A DNA stretch of 64,000 bases, from assembly GCF_054482595.1 (NCBI RefSeq), contig NZ_CM137008.1. The stretch is one strand, 5' to 3'. This document shows, one piece after another, positions 35,194 through 46,471 of this stretch. Position numbers and translations under genes: made by a program. Each line of letters opens with the position of its first letter. The first letter of the stretch is position 1. Below the pieces are notes generated by a model, which worked only from the letters and a program-made list of their open reading frames with translations, ran no database searches and was not told the origin of the DNA.

Positions 35194-35853
35194 ATGGACC
35201 TGATTTATTTCCTCATCGATTTTATCCTGCACATTGACGTGCATCTGGCAGAGCTGGTCGCGGAGTACGGCGTCTGGGTTTATGCCATTCTGTTTTTGAT
35301 TCTGTTCTGCGAAACGGGGCTGGTGGTAACGCCATTCCTGCCTGGTGATTCGCTGCTGTTTGTTGCTGGTGCATTGGCGTCGCTGGAAACTAACGATCTC
35401 AATGTCCATATGATGGTGGTGCTTATGTTGATTGCCGCTATTGTCGGTGATGCAGTGAACTATACCATTGGACGGTTATTTGGTGACAAACTGTTCAGTA
35501 ACCCGGATTCGAAAATCTTTCGTCGCAGTTATCTTGATAAGACTCATCAGTTTTACGAGAGACATGGCGGCAAAACGATTATTCTCGCCCGTTTTGTACC
35601 GATCGTCAGAACGTTCGCGCCGTTTGTTGCGGGAATGGGCCACATGTCGTACCGTCATTTCGCCGCTTATAACGTGATCGGCGCACTGTTGTGGGTACTG
35701 ATTTTTACCTACGCGGGTTATTTCTTCGGCACGCTCCCCTTCATTCAGAGCAACCTTAAGCTGATGATTGTTGGCATTATTTTTGTTTCAATATTGCCTG
35801 GGGTTTTCGAATTTATTCGTCACAAACGCGCTGCGGCACGCGCCGCAAAATAA
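35194..35853 (+). CDS. dedA: DedA-family inner membrane protein
   Basis: 219-aa membrane ORF. Confidence 0.88.
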
Positions 35854-39969: not shown

Positions 39970-41487
39970 ATGTGCGGTATTGTCGGTATCGCCGGTGTTA
40001 TGCCGGTTAACCAGTCGATTTATGATGCCTTAACGGTGCTTCAGCATCGCGGTCAGGATGCCGCCGGCATCATCACCATAGATGCCAATAACTGCTTCCG
40101 TTTGCGTAAAGCGAACGGGCTGGTGAGCGATGTATTTGAAGCTCGCCATATGCAGCGTTTGCAGGGCAATATGGGCATTGGTCATGTGCGTTACCCTACG
40201 GCTGGCAGCTCCAGCGCCTCTGAAGCGCAGCCGTTTTACGTTAACTCCCCGTATGGCATTACGCTTGCCCACAACGGCAATCTGACCAACGCTCACGAGT
40301 TGCGTAAAAAACTGTTTGAAGAAAAACGCCGCCACATCAACACCACTTCCGACTCGGAAATTCTGCTTAATATCTTCGCCAGCGAGCTGGACAACTTCCG
40401 CCACTACCCGCTGGAAGCCGACAATATTTTCGCTGCCATTGCTGCCACAAACCGCTTAATCCGCGGCGCATATGCCTGTGTGGCGATGATTATCGGCCAC
40501 GGTATGGTTGCTTTCCGCGATCCAAACGGGATTCGTCCGCTGGTACTGGGAAAACGTGATATTGACGAGAACCGTACAGAATATATGGTCGCTTCCGAAA
40601 GCGTAGCGCTCGATACGCTGGGCTTTGATTTCCTGCGTGACGTCGCGCCGGGCGAAGCGATTTACATCACTGAAGAAGGGCAGTTGTTTACCCGTCAGTG
40701 TGCTGACAATCCGGTCAGCAATCCGTGCCTGTTTGAGTATGTATACTTTGCCCGTCCGGACTCGTTCATCGACAAAATTTCCGTTTACAGCGCGCGTGTG
40801 AATATGGGCACGAAACTGGGCGAGAAAATTGCCCGCGAGTGGGAAGATCTGGATATCGACGTGGTGATCCCGATCCCGGAAACCTCGTGTGATATCGCGC
40901 TGGAAATTGCGCGTATTCTGGGCAAACCGTACCGCCAGGGCTTCGTTAAAAACCGCTATGTTGGCCGCACCTTCATCATGCCGGGCCAGCAGCTGCGTCG
41001 TAAGTCCGTGCGCCGTAAACTGAATGCCAACCGCGCCGAGTTCCGCGATAAAAACGTCCTGCTGGTCGACGACTCCATCGTCCGTGGCACCACTTCTGAG
41101 CAGATTATCGAGATGGCACGCGAAGCTGGCGCGAAGAAAGTGTACCTCGCCTCGGCGGCACCGGAAATTCGCTTCCCGAACGTTTACGGGATTGATATGC
41201 CAAGCGCCACGGAGCTGATCGCTCACGGTCGTGAAGTGGATGAAATTCGCCAGATCATTGGTGCTGACGGTTTGATTTTCCAGGATCTGAACGATCTAAT
41301 CGAAGCCGTTCGCGCTGAGAACCCGGACATTCAGCAGTTTGAATGCTCGGTGTTCAACGGCGTATACGTCACCAAAGACGTTGATCAGGGCTACCTCGAT
41401 TTCCTCGATACTTTACGTAATGACGACGCCAAAGCGGTGCAGCGCCAGAACGAAGTGGAAAATCTCGAAATGCATAACGAAGGATGA
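39970..41487 (+). CDS. purF: Amidophosphoribosyltransferase
   Basis: 505-aa ORF beginning MCGIVGI (Ntn glutamine amidotransferase catalytic Cys after Met). Confidence 0.95.
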
Positions 41488-41581
41488 TGCCTTCGCTCAG
41501 GGTGCCGGTCTGGCACCCTGACTTGCAACTCCCGCCGAAATCCTGCAAAGTCTGCCTGCAAGTCTGACAGGGCAACTATTT

Positions 41582-42151
41582 ATGAAACGACTTATTGTGG
41601 GCATCAGCGGTGCCAGCGGTGCGATTTATGGCGTGCGCTTATTACAGGTTCTGCGCGATGTCACAGATATCGAAACGCATCTGGTGATGAGCCAGGCGGC
41701 GCGCCAGACCTTATCCCTCGAAACGGATTTTTCCCTGCGCGAAGTGCAGGCGTTAGCCGATGTCACGCACGATGCGCGCGATATTGCCGCCAGCATCTCT
41801 TCCGGTTCTTTCCAGACGCTGGGGATGGTGATTTTACCCTGTTCAATCAAAACCCTTTCCGGCATTGTCCATAGCTATACTGATGGCTTACTGACCCGTG
41901 CGGCAGATGTGGTGCTGAAAGAGCGTCGCCCGTTGGTGCTCTGCGTGCGTGAAACACCATTGCACTTAGGTCATCTGCGTTTAATGACTCAGGCAGCAGA
42001 AATCGGTGCGGTGATTATGCCTCCCGTTCCGGCGTTTTATCATCGCCCGCAATCCCTTGATGATGTGATAAATCAGACGGTTAATCGTGTTCTTGACCAG
42101 TTTGCGATAACCCTTCCTGAAGATCTCTTTGCCCGCTGGCAGGGCGCATAA
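41582..42151 (+). CDS. ubiX: Flavin prenyltransferase UbiX
   Basis: 189-aa ORF MKRLIVGISGASGAIYGVRLL... Confidence 0.92.
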   Translation: MKRLIVGISGASGAIYGVRLLQVLRDVTDIETHLVMSQAARQTLSLETDFSLREVQALADVTHDARDIAASISSGSFQTLGMVILPCSIKTLSGIVHSYTDGLLTRAADVVLKERRPLVLCVRETPLHLGHLRLMTQAAEIGAVIMPPVPAFYHRPQSLDDVINQTVNRVLDQFAITLPEDLFARWQGA

Positions 42152-42159
42152 CTCCGCTG

Positions 42160-42183
42160 TTGCCCTGTTTCAGGGCAATTTTG
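42160..42183 (+). terminator. Rho-independent terminator after ubiX
   Basis: TTGCCCTG-ttt-CAGGGCAA-TTTTG. Confidence 0.6.
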
Positions 42184-42332
42184 CAACCGCGATCAAATCC
42201 TCGACATTTTGTTTCTGCCATTCAATCGAAACGCTGCGATTCAACCGCTATACCTGCTATCTTCAACTTTAGGACAATAATGCAACGTCTTATTAACATA
42301 TTTAACGTTGAATGTTACTGTTGTCGTCAAGA

Positions 42333-42348
42333 TGGCATAAGACCTGCA
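42333..42348 (+). promoter_or_regulatory. Sigma-54 (-24/-12) promoter for argT
   Basis: TGGCAT-aagac-CTGCA matches the TGGCAC-N5-TTGCW pattern about 70 bp upstream of the argT ATG. Confidence 0.6.
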
Positions 42349-42415
42349 TGAAAGAGCCTGCAAACACACAACACAATACACAACATAAAAAGCCATTTTC
42401 ACTTGAGGGTTATGT

Positions 42416-43198
42416 ATGAAGAAGTCGATTCTCGCTCTGTCTTTGTTAGTCGGTCTCTCCGCAGCGGCTTCCAGCTATGCGGCGCTACCGGAGACGGTAC
42501 GTATCGGAACTGATACCACCTATGCGCCGTTCTCGTCGAAAGATGCTAAAGGTGATTTTGTTGGCTTTGATATCGATCTCGGTAACGAGATGTGCAAACG
42601 GATGCAGGTGAAATGTACCTGGGTTGCCAGTGACTTTGACGCGCTGATCCCCTCACTGAAAGCGAAAAAAATCGACGCCATTATTTCGTCGCTCTCCATT
42701 ACCGATAAACGTCAGCAGGAGATTGCTTTCTCCGACAAGTTGTACGCCGCAGATTCTCGTTTGATTGCCGCCAAAGGTTCGCCGATTCAGCCAACGCTGG
42801 ATTCACTGAAAGGTAAACATGTTGGTGTGCTGCAGGGATCAACCCAGGAAGCTTACGCTAACGAGACCTGGCGTAGCAAAGGTGTGGATGTGGTGGCCTA
42901 TGCCAACCAGGATTTGGTCTATTCCGATCTGGCTGCAGGACGTCTGGATGCTGCACTGCAGGATGAAGTTGCTGCCAGCGAAGGATTCCTCAAGCAACCT
43001 GCTGGTAAAGACTTCGCCTTTGCTGGCTCATCAGTAAAAGACAAAAAATACTTCGGTGATGGCACCGGTGTAGGGCTACGTAAAGATGATGCTGAACTGA
43101 CGGCTGCTTTCAATAAGGCGCTTGGCGAGCTGCGTCAGGACGGCACCTACGACAAGATGGCGAAAAAGTATTTCGACTTTAATGTCTACGGTGACTGA
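42416..43198 (+). CDS. argT: Lysine/arginine/ornithine-binding periplasmic protein
   Basis: 260-aa secreted ORF, paralogous to hisJ downstream. Confidence 0.92.
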
Positions 43199-43256
43199 TA
43201 CGTCGCTGGGAAGCTGTACCTGATGGAATGATCATCATGGTGCACGCCAGGTTTGT

Positions 43257-43273
43257 TGCACTATCGTGGTGCA
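43257..43273 (+). promoter_or_regulatory. NtrC-like binding site upstream of hisJ
   Basis: TGCACTATCGTGGTGCA fits the NtrC consensus TGCACCA-N3-TGGTGCA with one mismatch. Confidence 0.5.
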
Positions 43274-43418
43274 TTGAAATGCATACTTAAGCATTTTTAA
43301 TGAAAAATAATACGTCTAACGGGGCGGGATATTTTGCCTTGATGGTCAATTTTATGGCACGATAAGTGTAACAAACCTGTAAATATTCCCTATAAAAAGA
43401 CTGTCAGTTGAGGACATT

Positions 43419-44201
43419 ATGAAAAAACTGGTGCTATCGCTCTCTCTGGTTCTGGCCTTCTCCAGCGCAACTGCGGCATTTGCTGCGATTCCGCAAAACA
43501 TCCGCATCGGTACCGACCCGACCTATGCGCCATTTGAATCAAAAAATTCACAAGGCGAACTGGTTGGCTTCGATATCGATCTGGCAAAGGAATTATGCAA
43601 ACGCATCAATACGCAATGTACGTTTGTCGAAAATCCGCTGGATGCGTTAATCCCGTCCTTAAAAGCGAAGAAGATTGACGCCATCATGTCATCGCTTTCC
43701 ATTACGGAAAAACGTCAGCAAGAAATAGCCTTCACCGACAAACTGTACGCTGCCGATTCTCGTTTGGTGGTGGCGAAAAATTCTGACATTCAGCCGACAG
43801 TCGAGTCGCTGAAAGGCAAACGGGTAGGCGTATTGCAGGGCACCACTCAGGAGACGTTCGGTAACGAACACTGGGCACCAAAAGGCATTGAAATCGTCTC
43901 GTATCAGGGGCAGGACAACATTTATTCTGACCTGACTGCCGGACGTATTGATGCCGCGTTCCAGGATGAGGTCGCTGCCAGTGAAGGTTTCCTCAAACAA
44001 CCCGTCGGTAAAGATTACAAATTCGGTGGCCCGTCTGTTAAAGATGAAAAACTGTTTGGCGTAGGGACCGGCATGGGCCTGCGTAAAGAAGATAACGAAC
44101 TGCGCGAGGCACTGAACAAAGCCTTTGCCGAAATGCGCGCTGACGGTACTTACGAGAAATTAGCGAAAAAGTACTTCGATTTTGATGTTTATGGCGGTTA
44201 A
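43419..44201 (+). CDS. hisJ: Histidine-binding periplasmic protein
   Basis: 260-aa secreted ORF, highly similar to argT. Confidence 0.93.
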
Positions 44202-44290
44202 TCGCCATCGGTGAAAGAAAGCCCGCTCCCTTCGGGTAACCGGAGGGAGACAAGAGGCGGTAATTCACCACACACGACAGGACAGGCAGC

Positions 44291-44977
44291 ATGTTGTATG
44301 GGTTTTCAGGTGTTATTTTACAGGGTGCGCTCGTCACGCTGGAGCTGGCTATCAGCTCTGTAGTGCTCGCTGTAATCATCGGTTTAATTGGCGCTGGCGG
44401 TAAGCTCTCGCAAAATCGGCTTTCGGGGCTGATTTTCGAAGGGTACACCACGCTGATTCGTGGCGTGCCGGACTTAGTGTTGATGCTGCTGATTTTCTAC
44501 GGTTTGCAGATTGCGCTAAACACGGTGACGGAGGCGATGGGCGTCGGGCAGATTGATATCGATCCGATGGTCGCTGGTATTATCACTCTCGGTTTTATCT
44601 ACGGTGCTTATTTTACCGAAACGTTCCGTGGTGCTTTTATGGCAGTGCCGAAAGGACATATAGAGGCGGCGACGGCGTTCGGTTTTACTCGTGGGCAAGT
44701 GTTTCGGCGGATCATGTTTCCGGCGATGATGCGTTACGCCCTGCCAGGCATTGGCAACAACTGGCAGGTGATCCTCAAATCTACCGCACTGGTTTCGTTA
44801 CTCGGCCTGGAAGATGTGGTCAAAGCCACCCAACTGGCAGGCAAAAGTACCTGGGAACCGTTCTATTTCGCCATCGTCTGTGGCGTGATTTACCTGGTTT
44901 TCACCACTGTTTCCAATGGTGTGCTGCTGTTCCTTGAGCGCCGCTACTCCGTGGGTGTGAAGAGGGCTGACCTGTGA
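44291..44977 (+). CDS. hisQ: Histidine ABC transporter permease
   Basis: 228-aa membrane ORF; stop overlaps the hisM start. Confidence 0.92.
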   Translation: MLYGFSGVILQGALVTLELAISSVVLAVIIGLIGAGGKLSQNRLSGLIFEGYTTLIRGVPDLVLMLLIFYGLQIALNTVTEAMGVGQIDIDPMVAGIITLGFIYGAYFTETFRGAFMAVPKGHIEAATAFGFTRGQVFRRIMFPAMMRYALPGIGNNWQVILKSTALVSLLGLEDVVKATQLAGKSTWEPFYFAIVCGVIYLVFTTVSNGVLLFLERRYSVGVKRADL

Positions 44978-45690
44978 TCGAAATCTTACATGAATACTGG
45001 AAACCGCTGCTGTGGACCGACGGTTATCGCTTTACTGGTGTGGCGATCACTCTGTGGCTGCTTATTTTGTCGGTAGTGATAGGCGGAGTCCTGGCGCTGT
45101 TTCTGGCGATTGGTCGTGTCTCCAGTAATAAATACATCCAGTTTCCAATCTGGTTATTTACCTATATTTTTCGCGGTACGCCGCTGTATGTTCAGTTGCT
45201 GGTGTTCTATTCCGGCATGTACACGCTTGAGATTGTTAAGGGAACCGAATTCCTTAACGCTTTCTTCCGCAGTGGCCTGAACTGTACCGTGCTGGCGCTG
45301 ACGCTTAACACCTGCGCTTACACTACCGAGATTTTTGCTGGGGCAATCCGTTCAGTGCCGCATGGGGAAATTGAAGCCGCCAGAGCCTATGGCTTCTCGA
45401 CCTTTAAAATGTATCGCTGCATTATTTTGCCTTCTGCCCTGCGTATTGCTCTACCGGCATACAGCAACGAAGTGATCCTGATGCTGCACTCTACTGCGTT
45501 GGCGTTTACTGCCACGGTGCCGGATCTGTTGAAAATAGCCCGCGATATTAACGCCGCCACGTATCAACCTTTTACCGCCTTCGGCATTGCCGCGGTGCTC
45601 TATTTAATCATCTCTTATGTCCTGATCAGCCTCTTTCGCAGAGCGGAAAAACGCTGGTTGCAGCATGTGAAACCTTCTTCAACGCACTGA
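44974..45690 (+). CDS. hisM: Histidine ABC transporter permease
   Basis: 238-aa membrane ORF. Confidence 0.92.
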
Positions 45691-45697
45691 GAATACG

Positions 45698-46471
45698 ATG
45701 TCCGAAAATAAATTAAACGTTATCGATTTGCACAAACGCTACGGCGAACACGAAGTGCTGAAAGGGGTCTCACTACAAGCGAATGCCGGAGATGTAATAA
45801 GCATCATCGGATCGTCGGGATCGGGGAAAAGTACCTTTCTGCGCTGCATTAACTTCCTCGAAAAACCGAGTGAAGGATCGATCGTGGTCAATGGCCAGAC
45901 GATCAATCTGGTGCGCGACAAAGACGGTCAACTCAAAGTCGCCGATAAAAATCAGCTGCGCTTACTGCGCACACGCCTGACGATGGTATTCCAGCACTTC
46001 AATCTCTGGAGCCATATGACGGTGCTGGAAAACGTCATGGAAGCGCCGATTCAGGTGTTGGGCCTGAGCAAGCAGGAAGCGCGCGAGCGGGCGGTGAAGT
46101 ATCTGGCAAAAGTCGGGATAGACGAACGTGCACAGGGGAAATATCCGGTGCATCTTTCCGGCGGTCAGCAACAGCGTGTTTCTATCGCGCGGGCGCTGGC
46201 GATGGAACCGGAAGTTTTACTGTTTGATGAACCTACCTCGGCGCTCGATCCTGAACTGGTAGGCGAAGTGTTGCGTATTATGCAGCAACTGGCAGAAGAG
46301 GGGAAAACCATGGTGGTAGTGACTCACGAAATGGGCTTTGCTCGCCATGTTTCTACTCACGTCATTTTCCTCCATCAGGGGAAAATAGAAGAAGAAGGCG
46401 CGCCGGAGCAGTTATTTGGCAACCCGCAAAGCCCTCGTCTGCAACAGTTCCTTAAGGGATCGCTGAAATAA
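45698..46471 (+). CDS. hisP: Histidine ABC transporter ATP-binding protein
   Basis: 257-aa ORF; Walker [10 protein letters not shown] and ABC signature LSGGQQQR. Confidence 0.95.

Follow-up and report, generated by a model that had tools for sequence, protein, structure and literature searches.

A sigma-54 promoter and an NtrC site in the control regions of the Escherichia coli argT-hisJQMP amino acid uptake cluster

Related nitrogen-controlled systems and the locus

The glnAp2 promoter of E. coli combines a -24/-12 element with two NtrC dyads about 110 and 140 bp 5' of its start. The glnHPQ, gltIJKL and yhdWXYZ operons encode further NtrC/sigma-54-controlled ABC systems that scavenge nitrogen-containing amino acids, and appear in the same ChIP-seq lists as the locus studied here. 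Each of them has one promoter for one binding protein, whereas argT-hisJQMP has two tandem paralogous binding-protein genes that serve one membrane complex from separate, differently built control regions. The closest described system is the Salmonella locus, which is orthologous, has the same gene order and carries an identical argT -24/-12 sequence, TGGCATAAGACCTGCATG, bound by sigma-54 in ChIP-chip; a ChIP-chip and array study lists Salmonella argT among the experimentally shown sigma-54/NtrC operons. An NtrC palindrome likewise occupies the corresponding place in its argT-hisJ spacer, and a sigma-54-like element precedes hisJ. Dependence of argT on sigma-54 and NtrC is also stated in a recent arginine-transport review.

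Here, we analyzed a 64-kb stretch of the E. coli chromosome (the window) that contains the purF-ubiX-argT-hisJQMP region. Its relevant genes are as follows.

42416..43198, plus strand: argT, lysine/arginine/ornithine periplasmic binding protein (open reading frame; NCBIfam equivalog NF011586, 583 bits)
43419..44201, plus strand: hisJ, histidine periplasmic binding protein (open reading frame; NCBIfam equivalog NF011965, 599 bits)
44291..46471, plus strand: hisQ, hisM and hisP, membrane and ATPase components common to ArgT and HisJ (open reading frames, NCBIfam, K-12 annotation)

ArgT, HisJ and HisP passed the NCBIfam equivalog cut-offs and HisQ and HisM the subfamily cut-offs, while the ATG positions (42416 for argT and 43419 for hisJ) were taken from the open reading frame list. 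The gene annotation agrees with that of K-12 and of the top matches listed (5,423 genomes cover at least 80% of the query), and the argT-hisJ spacer is 100% identical to that of K-12. The NCBIfam matches confirm the gene identities; ArgT and HisJ are 69% identical. A search of 41400-44400 against Rfam at E <= 1 returned zero matches, and known RNA elements therefore do not account for the spacers. Simple sigma-70 and terminator scans gave matches no commoner than in shuffled sequence, and the former missed the documented hisJ sigma-70 promoter.

As detailed below, we conclude with a probability of about 0.9 that the region represents the nitrogen-regulated control of basic-amino-acid uptake by the argT-hisJQMP cluster of E. 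coli, comprising the argT sigma-54 promoter and an NtrC site occupied in vivo. Both motifs are long-known nitrogen-starvation control elements of argT-hisJQMP, so that their original identification was correct and the elements themselves already known.

The argT promoter and its upstream spacer

Two features were placed in the ubiX-argT spacer.

42160..42178, no strand assigned: palindrome TTGCCCTG-TTT-CAGGGCAA followed by TTTTG, directly 3' of the ubiX stop, with a 9-bp stem fold
42333..42348, plus strand: argTp, sigma-54 -24/-12 promoter TGGCATAAGACCTGCA, with a predicted start at ~42359, 57-58 nt before the ATG

The argTp motif reads TGGCAT-AAGAC-CTGCA, with the GG (42334-42335) and GC (42346-42347) 10 bp apart. 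It begins 83 nt and ends 67 nt 5' of the ATG, in agreement with the sigma-54 motif predicted about 70 bp before argT. Allowing up to two mismatches, the loose sigma-54 consensus matched the window 18 times against 27.5 expected, which alone is not significant, while the exact form TGGCAY-N5-YTGCA was found once against 0.27 expected. Since the loose consensus was uninformative, we used instead a matrix derived from published ChIP sites; it was built from 49 other ChIP-defined sites, which themselves score between 7.7 and 21.1 bits with a median of 15.8. In this RpoN matrix scan, a check proposed along with the original prediction, the argT site scored 14.74 bits and ranked 1 of 127,968 positions. 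Two intragenic matches nearly equalled it (14.70 and 14.57 bits), and the sequence alone would thus leave the argT site unsettled. What settles it is its position, its conservation and the published ChIP data. The -24/-12 element was recovered in 76/76 ubiX-argT spacers, 62-105 nt 5' of the ATG, in a sample of Enterobacteriaceae with conserved ubiX-argT-hisJ-hisQ gene order; the E. coli sigma-54 ChIP-seq site OS22 (ATGGCATAAGACCTGCA) is the argT motif itself; and an RpoN gSELEX peak falls in the ubiX-argT spacer. Nitrogen signalling has also been found to affect argTp reporters. An overlapping sigma-70 promoter, repressed by sigma-54, has been described at argT, and its expression is therefore not purely sigma-54-dependent. 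One 'argT promoter' of the literature is that of the tRNA gene argT and is irrelevant here.

In the mechanism that we propose for argT, the sigma-54 RNA polymerase would wait at 42333-42348 as a closed complex, until phosphorylated NtrC, made under nitrogen limitation, loops the DNA, contacts the polymerase and hydrolyses ATP to yield the open complex. In the ubiX-argT spacers of E. coli, Salmonella and Citrobacter, the best NtrC match departs from the consensus at 5-6 positions, no better than expected by chance, and no recognisable site was found there, a point that the original prediction had overlooked. A weak NtrC ChIP-seq peak (5.4-fold) has been reported at argTp and maps to 42288-42368 of the window; the 18-bp pseudo-dyad TGCATGAAAGAGCCTGCA (42345-42362) was considered as its source and rejected, its spacing being wrong by 1 bp. 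The palindrome after ubiX, which forms the 5' end of the 'argTp' fragment in PMC7045595, looks by its sequence like a ubiX terminator hairpin. It may in addition serve argTp as a weak NtrC site, its centre lying ~190 bp 5' of the start predicted for argT; it departs from the NtrC consensus at 6 positions, compared with 1-3 in the palindromes of other genera at the same position.

The control region between argT and hisJ

The following elements were placed in the argT-hisJ spacer.

43228..43244, no strand assigned: weak NtrC-like site ATGATCATCATGGTGCA, right half perfect, left half poor, 4 mismatches
43257..43273, no strand assigned: strong NtrC (GlnG) site TGCACTATCGTGGTGCA, one mismatch (C6 to T) to TGCACCA-N3-TGGTGCA, centre 43265
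43278..43316, no strand assigned: predicted ArgR operator, ARG boxes AATGCATACTTAAGCATT and AATGAAAAATAATACGTC 3 bp apart, 4 bp 3' of the strong NtrC site
43355..43370, plus strand: sigma-54-like element TGGCACGATAAGTGTA (TGGCAC-N5-GTGTA), GG at -24 and GT at -12, predicted start ~43381

The NtrC consensus, as quoted in the literature, is the 17-bp dyad TGCACCA-N3-TGGTGCA. At one mismatch or fewer, it matched the 64-kb window only at 43257-43273 (0.02 expected), 162 nt (start) and 145 nt (end) 5' of the hisJ ATG, which confirms the predicted one-mismatch site about 150 bp before hisJ. Brown et al. 2014 assigned to hisJQMP a 23.7-fold peak in NtrC ChIP-seq, which maps to 43208-43288 of the window and has the palindrome in its middle; our mapping of the peaks, when compared with the Bonocora argT motif centre, agreed within 1 bp. 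The same study lists argT and hisJQMP as NtrC-regulated from expression evidence. Among the NtrC gSELEX targets tabulated in Shimada 2021, the argT-hisJ spacer is missing, all argT and hisJ entries being found in the RpoN holoenzyme or combined tables. Taken together, the NtrC ChIP peak, the expression evidence and the reports on argT establish nitrogen-limitation control of argT and hisJ, and the published NtrC and sigma-54 ChIP data and the expression listing agree with the original prediction that both binding-protein genes are controlled in this way. We regard 43257-43273 as a genuine NtrC site that is occupied in vivo in nitrogen-starved cells, probably acting together with the weaker site at 43228-43244, whose centre lies 29 bp 5' of that of the strong site. 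The weak site is included in a 12-bp-stem hairpin (43215-43244) just 3' of argT.

Conservation of these sites was extensive. NtrC-like sites with up to 3 mismatches occurred in 71/76 argT-hisJ spacers, as opposed to ~1% of shuffled spacers. Across 79 loci, the TGGTGCA half of the weak site was kept in at least 90%, and sites orthologous to the strong one were present in nearly all, with a perfect consensus in Salmonella diarizonae. The S. diarizonae sequence, TGCACCATTTTGGTGCA, fits the consensus TGCACC(A/T)4TGGTGCA, which is attributed to a 1985 paper. Other genera display 2-3 clearer NtrC sites in this spacer, compared with one strong and one weak site (4 mismatches) in E. coli. Unlike Salmonella, E. 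coli has one mismatch in its NtrC site and lacks ~21 bp between this site and the ARG boxes, which brings the site from ~136 to 116 bp 5' of the predicted start.

The documented hisJ promoter is sigma-70-dependent and ArgR-repressed, according to the arginine-transport review, with two ARG boxes 17 bp upstream of its -35. The ARG-box pair that we predict at 43278-43316 is the best in the spacer and matches 24/32 consensus positions, a score reached at just 3 window positions; the block is conserved across genera. The second-best pair (43268-43306) shares sequence with the right half of the NtrC site. As a guess from the 17-bp distance, the sigma-70 promoter may consist of TTGCCT at 43334-43339 and, after an 18-bp spacer, CACGAT at 43358-43363; the -10 so guessed overlaps the TGGCAC of the sigma-54-like element, and this placement conflicts with a prediction of TTGAAA-16-TTTAAT at 43274-43301.

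The sigma-54-like element before hisJ had been overlooked in the original prediction. It lacks the GG and GC 10 bp apart, having GT in place of GC at -12, and scored 12.41 bits in the matrix scan (rank 9 of 127,968); an in silico change of T43369 to C raised this to 15.70. GC occupies the -12 position in 64/79 loci, while GT was found only in Escherichia and one other locus. A 57-mer around the element was found in its C form in no E. coli genome searched, the T being fixed in E. coli. Salmonella weakened the element differently, with TCGCA or CCGCA where Escherichia has GTGTA, and its version has been annotated as 'not an active promoter'. In 19/76 loci, several Enterobacter-group and Klebsiella ones among them, the hisJ -24/-12 has decayed and the NtrC sites persist. 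The -12 of glnAp2 is GC, and sigma-54 occupies this promoter strongly (OS37). At hisJ, by contrast, no occupancy of the GT-bearing element has been detected, the upstream NtrC site is weak, and a predicted ArgR operator separates the NtrC sites from the promoter. No peak at the hisJ element was reported among the 135 high-stringency E. coli sigma-54 ChIP-seq sites or in the supplements, from cells in mid-log growth in M9 minimal medium, and RpoN gSELEX gave no peak in the argT-hisJ spacer, with or without NtrC. The pspA, pspG and ygeW promoters (TTGGCACGCAAATTGTA, TTGGCATGATTCTTGTA and CTGGCACACTTATTGTT) likewise have GT at -12 and are bound in vivo, so GT alone does not prevent sigma-54 binding; they differ in keeping TT before the G (TTGT), whereas the hisJ element, itself missing from the bound sites, has GTGT and so departs from the consensus a second time. 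The hisJ element probably derives from an ancestral NtrC/sigma-54 promoter of hisJ that was weakened or inactivated.

The target of the NtrC site

An NtrC site requires a sigma-54 promoter as its target, and two candidates lie within looping range of the strong site: the imperfect element about 100 bp 3' (motif centre 43362) and argTp 0.9 kb 5'. The anatomy is that of an NtrC/sigma-54 promoter for hisJ, in a layout common to most Enterobacteriaceae, and we tentatively entertain the possibility, implied by the original prediction and on which we would not wager at even odds, that the NtrC sites in 43228-43273 directly drive a sigma-54 hisJQMP promoter at 43355-43370 with a start ~38 nt 5' of the hisJ ATG. 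In support of this notion, the site centres lie 116 and 145 bp 5' of the predicted start, as at glnAp2, and across the 51 loci in which the hisJ element is good, NtrC-like sites cluster ~114, 136 and 165 bp 5' of the predicted start. The loss of ~21 bp 5' of the ARG boxes, specific to Escherichia, keeps the helical phase, and the stretch from 43355 to the ATG is identical in E. albertii (a single locus compared), although the spacer further upstream differs. The score of the element falls inside the range of the ChIP-bound sites, which include promoters with the same GT, and Brown et al. give their peak to hisJQMP. Set against this are the GT together with the G for T three bases upstream (GTGTA versus TTGCA), the missing ChIP-seq and gSELEX peaks, the Salmonella annotation, the sigma-70 dependence of the known promoter and the decay of the -24/-12 in loci that retain the NtrC sites. 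Two caveats thus attach to the original assignment of the NtrC site to hisJ: the documented promoter is sigma-70-dependent and ArgR-repressed, and the sigma-54 candidate carries GT at -12 and has no published occupancy. Alternatively, the argT-hisJ sites might be the main enhancer of argTp, looping from ~0.9 kb 3' of the argT start, while read-through of the argT transcript would induce hisJQMP under nitrogen limitation, a proposal that we consider doubtful. Reitzer and Magasanik reportedly observed in 1986 that NtrC sites act at distances of kilobases, whichever side of glnAp2 they are on. In E. coli, Salmonella and Citrobacter, argTp is retained without a recognisable NtrC site 5' of it, and the downstream sites could for this reason be its physiological enhancer. 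Loss of the hisJ -24/-12 leaves NtrC sites with up to 3 mismatches in 19/19 loci, the weak ChIP peak falls on the argT promoter itself and not on a site 5' of it, as expected for a looped contact, no canonical intrinsic terminator was found between argT and hisJ, and two sources write the unit as argT-hisJQMP. However, in published reporters the plasmid fragment 42161-42357 (that of PMC7045595), which is devoid of the downstream sites, was the strongest sigma-54 promoter tested, and argTp-lacZ, when placed at the lac locus, remains responsive to deletion of glnK. In addition, the palindrome at 42161-42177, whose orthologs elsewhere match the consensus better, may supply a weak site, and the compared loci are related, so the persistence of their NtrC sites is not independent evidence.

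A further explanation dispenses with sigma-54 at hisJ: NtrC at 43257-43273 might act on the sigma-70 promoter, for example by competing with ArgR and relieving arginine repression when nitrogen is scarce, or the site might be largely vestigial in Escherichia. To our knowledge, NtrC does not activate sigma-70 promoters and represses those on which it acts (glnAp1 and glnL, for example), which weighs against the former; the strong ChIP occupancy and the family-wide conservation of the NtrC sites weigh against the latter. Both remain compatible with the lack of published sigma-54 occupancy at the hisJ element. The competition model draws on the best ARG-box pair next to the NtrC site and on the next-best pair overlapping its right half, although these coordinates are predicted, and on a report in the arginine-transport review that ArgR represses PhisJ weakly, by an atypical, non-steric mechanism. 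Altogether we judge this explanation unlikely. Finally, both motifs might match their short consensus sequences by chance and regulate nothing, a reading for which one could cite the lack of enrichment of the loose sigma-54 consensus in the window and the intragenic matches that score close to argTp without published binding. This idea has a negligible probability, being refuted by the rarity of the NtrC match, by conservation (the argT motif in every locus compared, NtrC-like sites in nearly as many) and by published sigma-54 and NtrC ChIP-seq at exactly these positions.

These considerations can be joined in a single evolutionary scenario, which we think rather improbable as a whole: in Escherichia, a fixed GC-to-GT change would have disabled the ancestral NtrC/sigma-54 promoter of hisJQMP, the retained and strongly occupied enhancer would have been re-assigned to argTp 0.9 kb back, and hisJQMP would be reached by read-through. 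If true, this would be a natural bacterial enhancer located downstream of its gene and re-assigned after its original promoter decayed. Comparative interest is otherwise modest and concerns a hisJ-proximal sigma-54 element that is widespread in Enterobacteriaceae and decayed in several lineages where the NtrC sites persist. Work on the sigma-54 promoter of argT and on the NtrC site 5' of hisJ dates back to the 1980s, genome-wide ChIP has re-found both, and our analysis confirms their annotation. Together, the two elements explain the higher uptake of lysine, arginine, ornithine and histidine in enteric bacteria when nitrogen is scarce.

Locus organization and the argT promoter

Several E. coli chromosomes carry the 2.8-kb region around both motifs with 100% identity, and at least 80% of it was matched in 5,423 of 5,426 complete genomes, chromosomally in every case, with ubiX, argT, hisJ, and hisQ annotated in the matches shown. 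In K-12, the order on the minus strand is purF, ubiX, argT, hisJ, hisQ, hisM, hisP. ArgT, HisJ, and HisP passed the curated cut-offs of NCBIfam equivalog models, and HisQ and HisM those of subfamily models; ArgT and HisJ share 69% identity. Since every base of the argT-hisJ spacer is the same as in K-12, experiments in K-12 are directly applicable.

Features of the locus (window coordinates)
42151: end of ubiX
42333-42348, coding strand: argTp, the sigma-54 -24/-12 motif of argT (TGGCATAAGACCTGCA), ending 67 nt upstream of the argT ATG
42416-43198: argT ORF
43228-43244: weak NtrC-like site, 29 bp upstream of the strong site
43257-43273: strong NtrC site (TGCACTATCGTGGTGCA), ending 145 nt upstream of the hisJ ATG
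43355-43370: hisJ element, a sigma-54-like sequence (TGGCACGATAAGTGTA), ending 48 nt upstream of the hisJ ATG
43419-44201: hisJ ORF
44291-46471: hisQMP ORFs

The original prediction placed a sigma-54 motif about 70 bp upstream of argT, and argTp confirms it. By consensus counts the motif was ambiguous, as exact TGGCAY-N5-YTGCA gave one match in the window against 0.27 expected and the loose consensus (two mismatches) 18 against 27.5. A matrix was therefore built that omitted argT and drew on the other 49 intergenic ChIP-seq motifs listed by Bonocora et al. 2015 (Table 1); on it, argTp had the highest score (14.74 bits) of the 127,968 positions scanned over both strands. Two intragenic matches scored nearly as high, TTGGCATTATTTTTGTT (35771-35787, +; 14.70 bits) and GTGGCAAAAAACCTGCA (15034-15050, +; 14.57 bits), so that the argT sequence is by itself suggestive and not decisive; when their coordinates are converted to K-12, neither corresponds to a site in the main text of the paper reporting sigma-54 ChIP-seq in E. 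coli.

A GG-N10-GC element lies 62-105 nt upstream of the argT ATG in all 76 Enterobacteriaceae ubiX-argT spacers, and many genera carry the same 16-mer as E. coli. Upstream of argT, ATGGCATAAGACCTGCA is sigma-54 ChIP-seq site OS22 (Bonocora et al.); the same sequence is bound in Salmonella, where Samuels et al. count argT among four operons whose sigma-54 dependence, with activation by NtrC, has been demonstrated experimentally, and an RpoN holoenzyme gSELEX peak falls within the ubiX-argT spacer (Shimada et al. 2021). Published and comparative evidence argues strongly for a mechanism in which sigma-54 forms a closed complex at argT, to be activated by NtrC-P under nitrogen limitation, and additionally competes with a sigma-70 promoter reported to overlap argTp.

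In the ubiX-argT spacers of E. coli, Salmonella, and Citrobacter, the best NtrC-like matches have 5-6 mismatches, no better than in shuffled sequence. Palindromes that differ from the consensus by 1-3 mismatches occur in Buttiauxella, Klebsiella, Pseudocitrobacter, and some Enterobacter, some 255 and 285 nt ahead of the argT ATG; the E. coli sequence at that position, TTGCCCTG-TTT-CAGGGCAA followed by TTTTG, has 6 mismatches to the NtrC consensus and looks like the ubiX terminator hairpin. Between this hairpin and argTp, ATTTTGCAACCGCGATCAAATCCTCGACATTTT (42178-42210) is ~80-100% conserved across the 76 spacers; it might bind a bending protein, as its ATCAA core resembles that of IHF sites, or serve argTp as an activator site that has gone unrecognised.

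NtrC sites and a sigma-54-like element upstream of hisJ

The strong NtrC site bears out the one-mismatch site foreseen about 150 bp upstream of hisJ; it is the sole match to TGCACCA-N3-TGGTGCA at that level in the 64 kb (0.02 expected). At the same position, Salmonella diarizonae carries TGCACCATTTTGGTGCA, an exact fit to the published NtrC consensus, and we infer that the argT-hisJ locus helped to define it. Brown et al. 2014 assigned to hisJQMP a 23.7-fold NtrC ChIP-seq peak, which converts to 43208-43288, its centre between the strong and weak sites. Their weak 5.4-fold peak at argT, missed by the authors' peak caller, converts to 42288-42368, on the sigma-54 promoter itself and not on an upstream site. 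The conversion is validated by its agreement, within 1 bp, with the Bonocora argT motif centre 2425890. Citing the expression data of Zimmer et al. 2000, Brown et al. 2014 listed both argT and hisJQMP as regulated by NtrC. Given the published sigma-54/NtrC ChIP-seq, gSELEX, and expression evidence, both original observations, and the overall interpretation of nitrogen-limitation control of argT and hisJ, are correct and already in the literature.

The hisJ element, which the original prediction had not noticed, scored 12.41 bits with the sigma-54 matrix (window rank 9), inside the range of bound sites. With the start set 19 bp past the motif centre (Bonocora convention), transcription is predicted to begin at ~43381, and the NtrC site centres lie 116 bp (strong) and 145 bp (weak) upstream, essentially the enhancer-promoter layout of glnAp2. 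A T to C change at -12 would lift the E. coli element to 15.7 bits; the exact 57-mer around this T is found in 4,354 complete E. coli genomes and the C form in 0. Evidence on use of the element in Escherichia is mostly negative. It is neither among the 135 high-stringency sigma-54 sites nor in the supplements of Bonocora et al., RpoN gSELEX did not list it whether NtrC was present or not, and a footnote credits a 1985 paper for the remark that its Salmonella counterpart is an inactive promoter. The documented E. coli hisJ promoter depends on sigma-70, and ArgR represses it weakly via a pair of ARG boxes that lie 17 bp ahead of the -35; the best predicted ARG-box pair (43278-43316) begins 4 bp past the NtrC site.

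In a histidine-auxotroph evolution experiment (PMC6415869), nearly every lineage carried a substitution, to any other base, at T43333, 86 nt upstream of the hisJ ATG. This base lies in a T-run after a weak hairpin (43313-43326), 1 nt before a conserved TTGCCT, and may mark a weak terminator or negative site limiting hisJQMP expression. In both spacers, NtrC-like palindromes overlap RNA hairpins just past the upstream gene's stop codon (42160-42183, 43215-43244), so the same DNA may act as protein-binding dyad and 3'-end hairpin. The hisJ-hisQ spacer (44202-44290) holds a very stable hairpin, CUCCCUUCGG-GUAA-CCGGAGGGAG, nested in an extended stem (-34.4 kcal/mol, z = -3.1), at the place where the histidine transport operon has its classic intercistronic stem-loop. 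Its probable role is to stabilise the hisJ portion of the transcript and to reduce expression of hisQMP compared with that of hisJ.

Target of the NtrC site

To our knowledge, NtrC sites act solely through a sigma-54 promoter. We give a probability of roughly 0.35 to direct activation of hisJ, a reading for which proximity, the glnAp2-like layout, and family-wide conservation speak, but whose partner promoter in Escherichia departs from consensus and gave no signal in binding assays, the documented one being sigma-70-dependent. GT at -12 is nevertheless tolerated at pspA, pspG, and ygeW, which are bound by sigma-54 in vivo (Bonocora et al. 2015), and the published sigma-54 map comes from mid-log cells in M9 minimal medium that were not nitrogen-starved.

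Slightly less likely is that the spacer sites act instead on argTp from 0.9 kb downstream, with hisJQMP induced by read-through. The poor matches in the ubiX-argT spacers of E. coli, Salmonella, and Citrobacter and the weak ChIP peak on argTp itself would fit such an arrangement, as would the lack of a canonical terminator between argT and hisJ, several authors writing argT-hisJQMP as a unit. However, a plasmid fragment limited to 42161-42357 gave the highest activity among the tested sigma-54 promoters, and an argTp-lacZ fusion kept its response to glnK deletion when moved to the lac locus. Loci with a hisJ element below 9 bits keep spacer NtrC-like sites at no more than 3 mismatches in 19 of 19 cases, but such persistence is weak evidence because the loci compared are related. 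The remaining weight is split between interplay with ArgR and a vestigial site.

The hisJ element across Enterobacteriaceae

Across 80 loci, one genome per species, the ubiX-argT-hisJ-hisQ order is retained. The hisJ element reaches at least 12 bits in 51 of 79 loci (e.g. TGGCACGATAACTGCA in Citrobacter and TGGCATGAAACATGCA in Buttiauxella), with NtrC-like sites grouped about 114, 136, and 165 bp ahead of where transcription is predicted to start. Its -12 dinucleotide is GC in 64/79 loci, GT being confined to Escherichia (E. coli, E. albertii, and two further species) and one Pluralibacter locus. In L027, L028, L056, L066, L072, L074, and other Enterobacter-group/Klebsiella loci, TGGCAC is retained ~65 nt before hisJ and the -12 GC is lost in differing ways (e.g. 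...AACGCCA, ...ACTGGC). The TGGCACGAT block in front of hisJ stays conserved despite the -12 losses, possibly owing to overlap with the -10 region of the sigma-70 promoter. On these sequence comparisons, the hisJ element looks like an ancestral NtrC/sigma-54 promoter of hisJQMP that was weakened in Escherichia, and the pattern suggests repeated, independent decay of this promoter.
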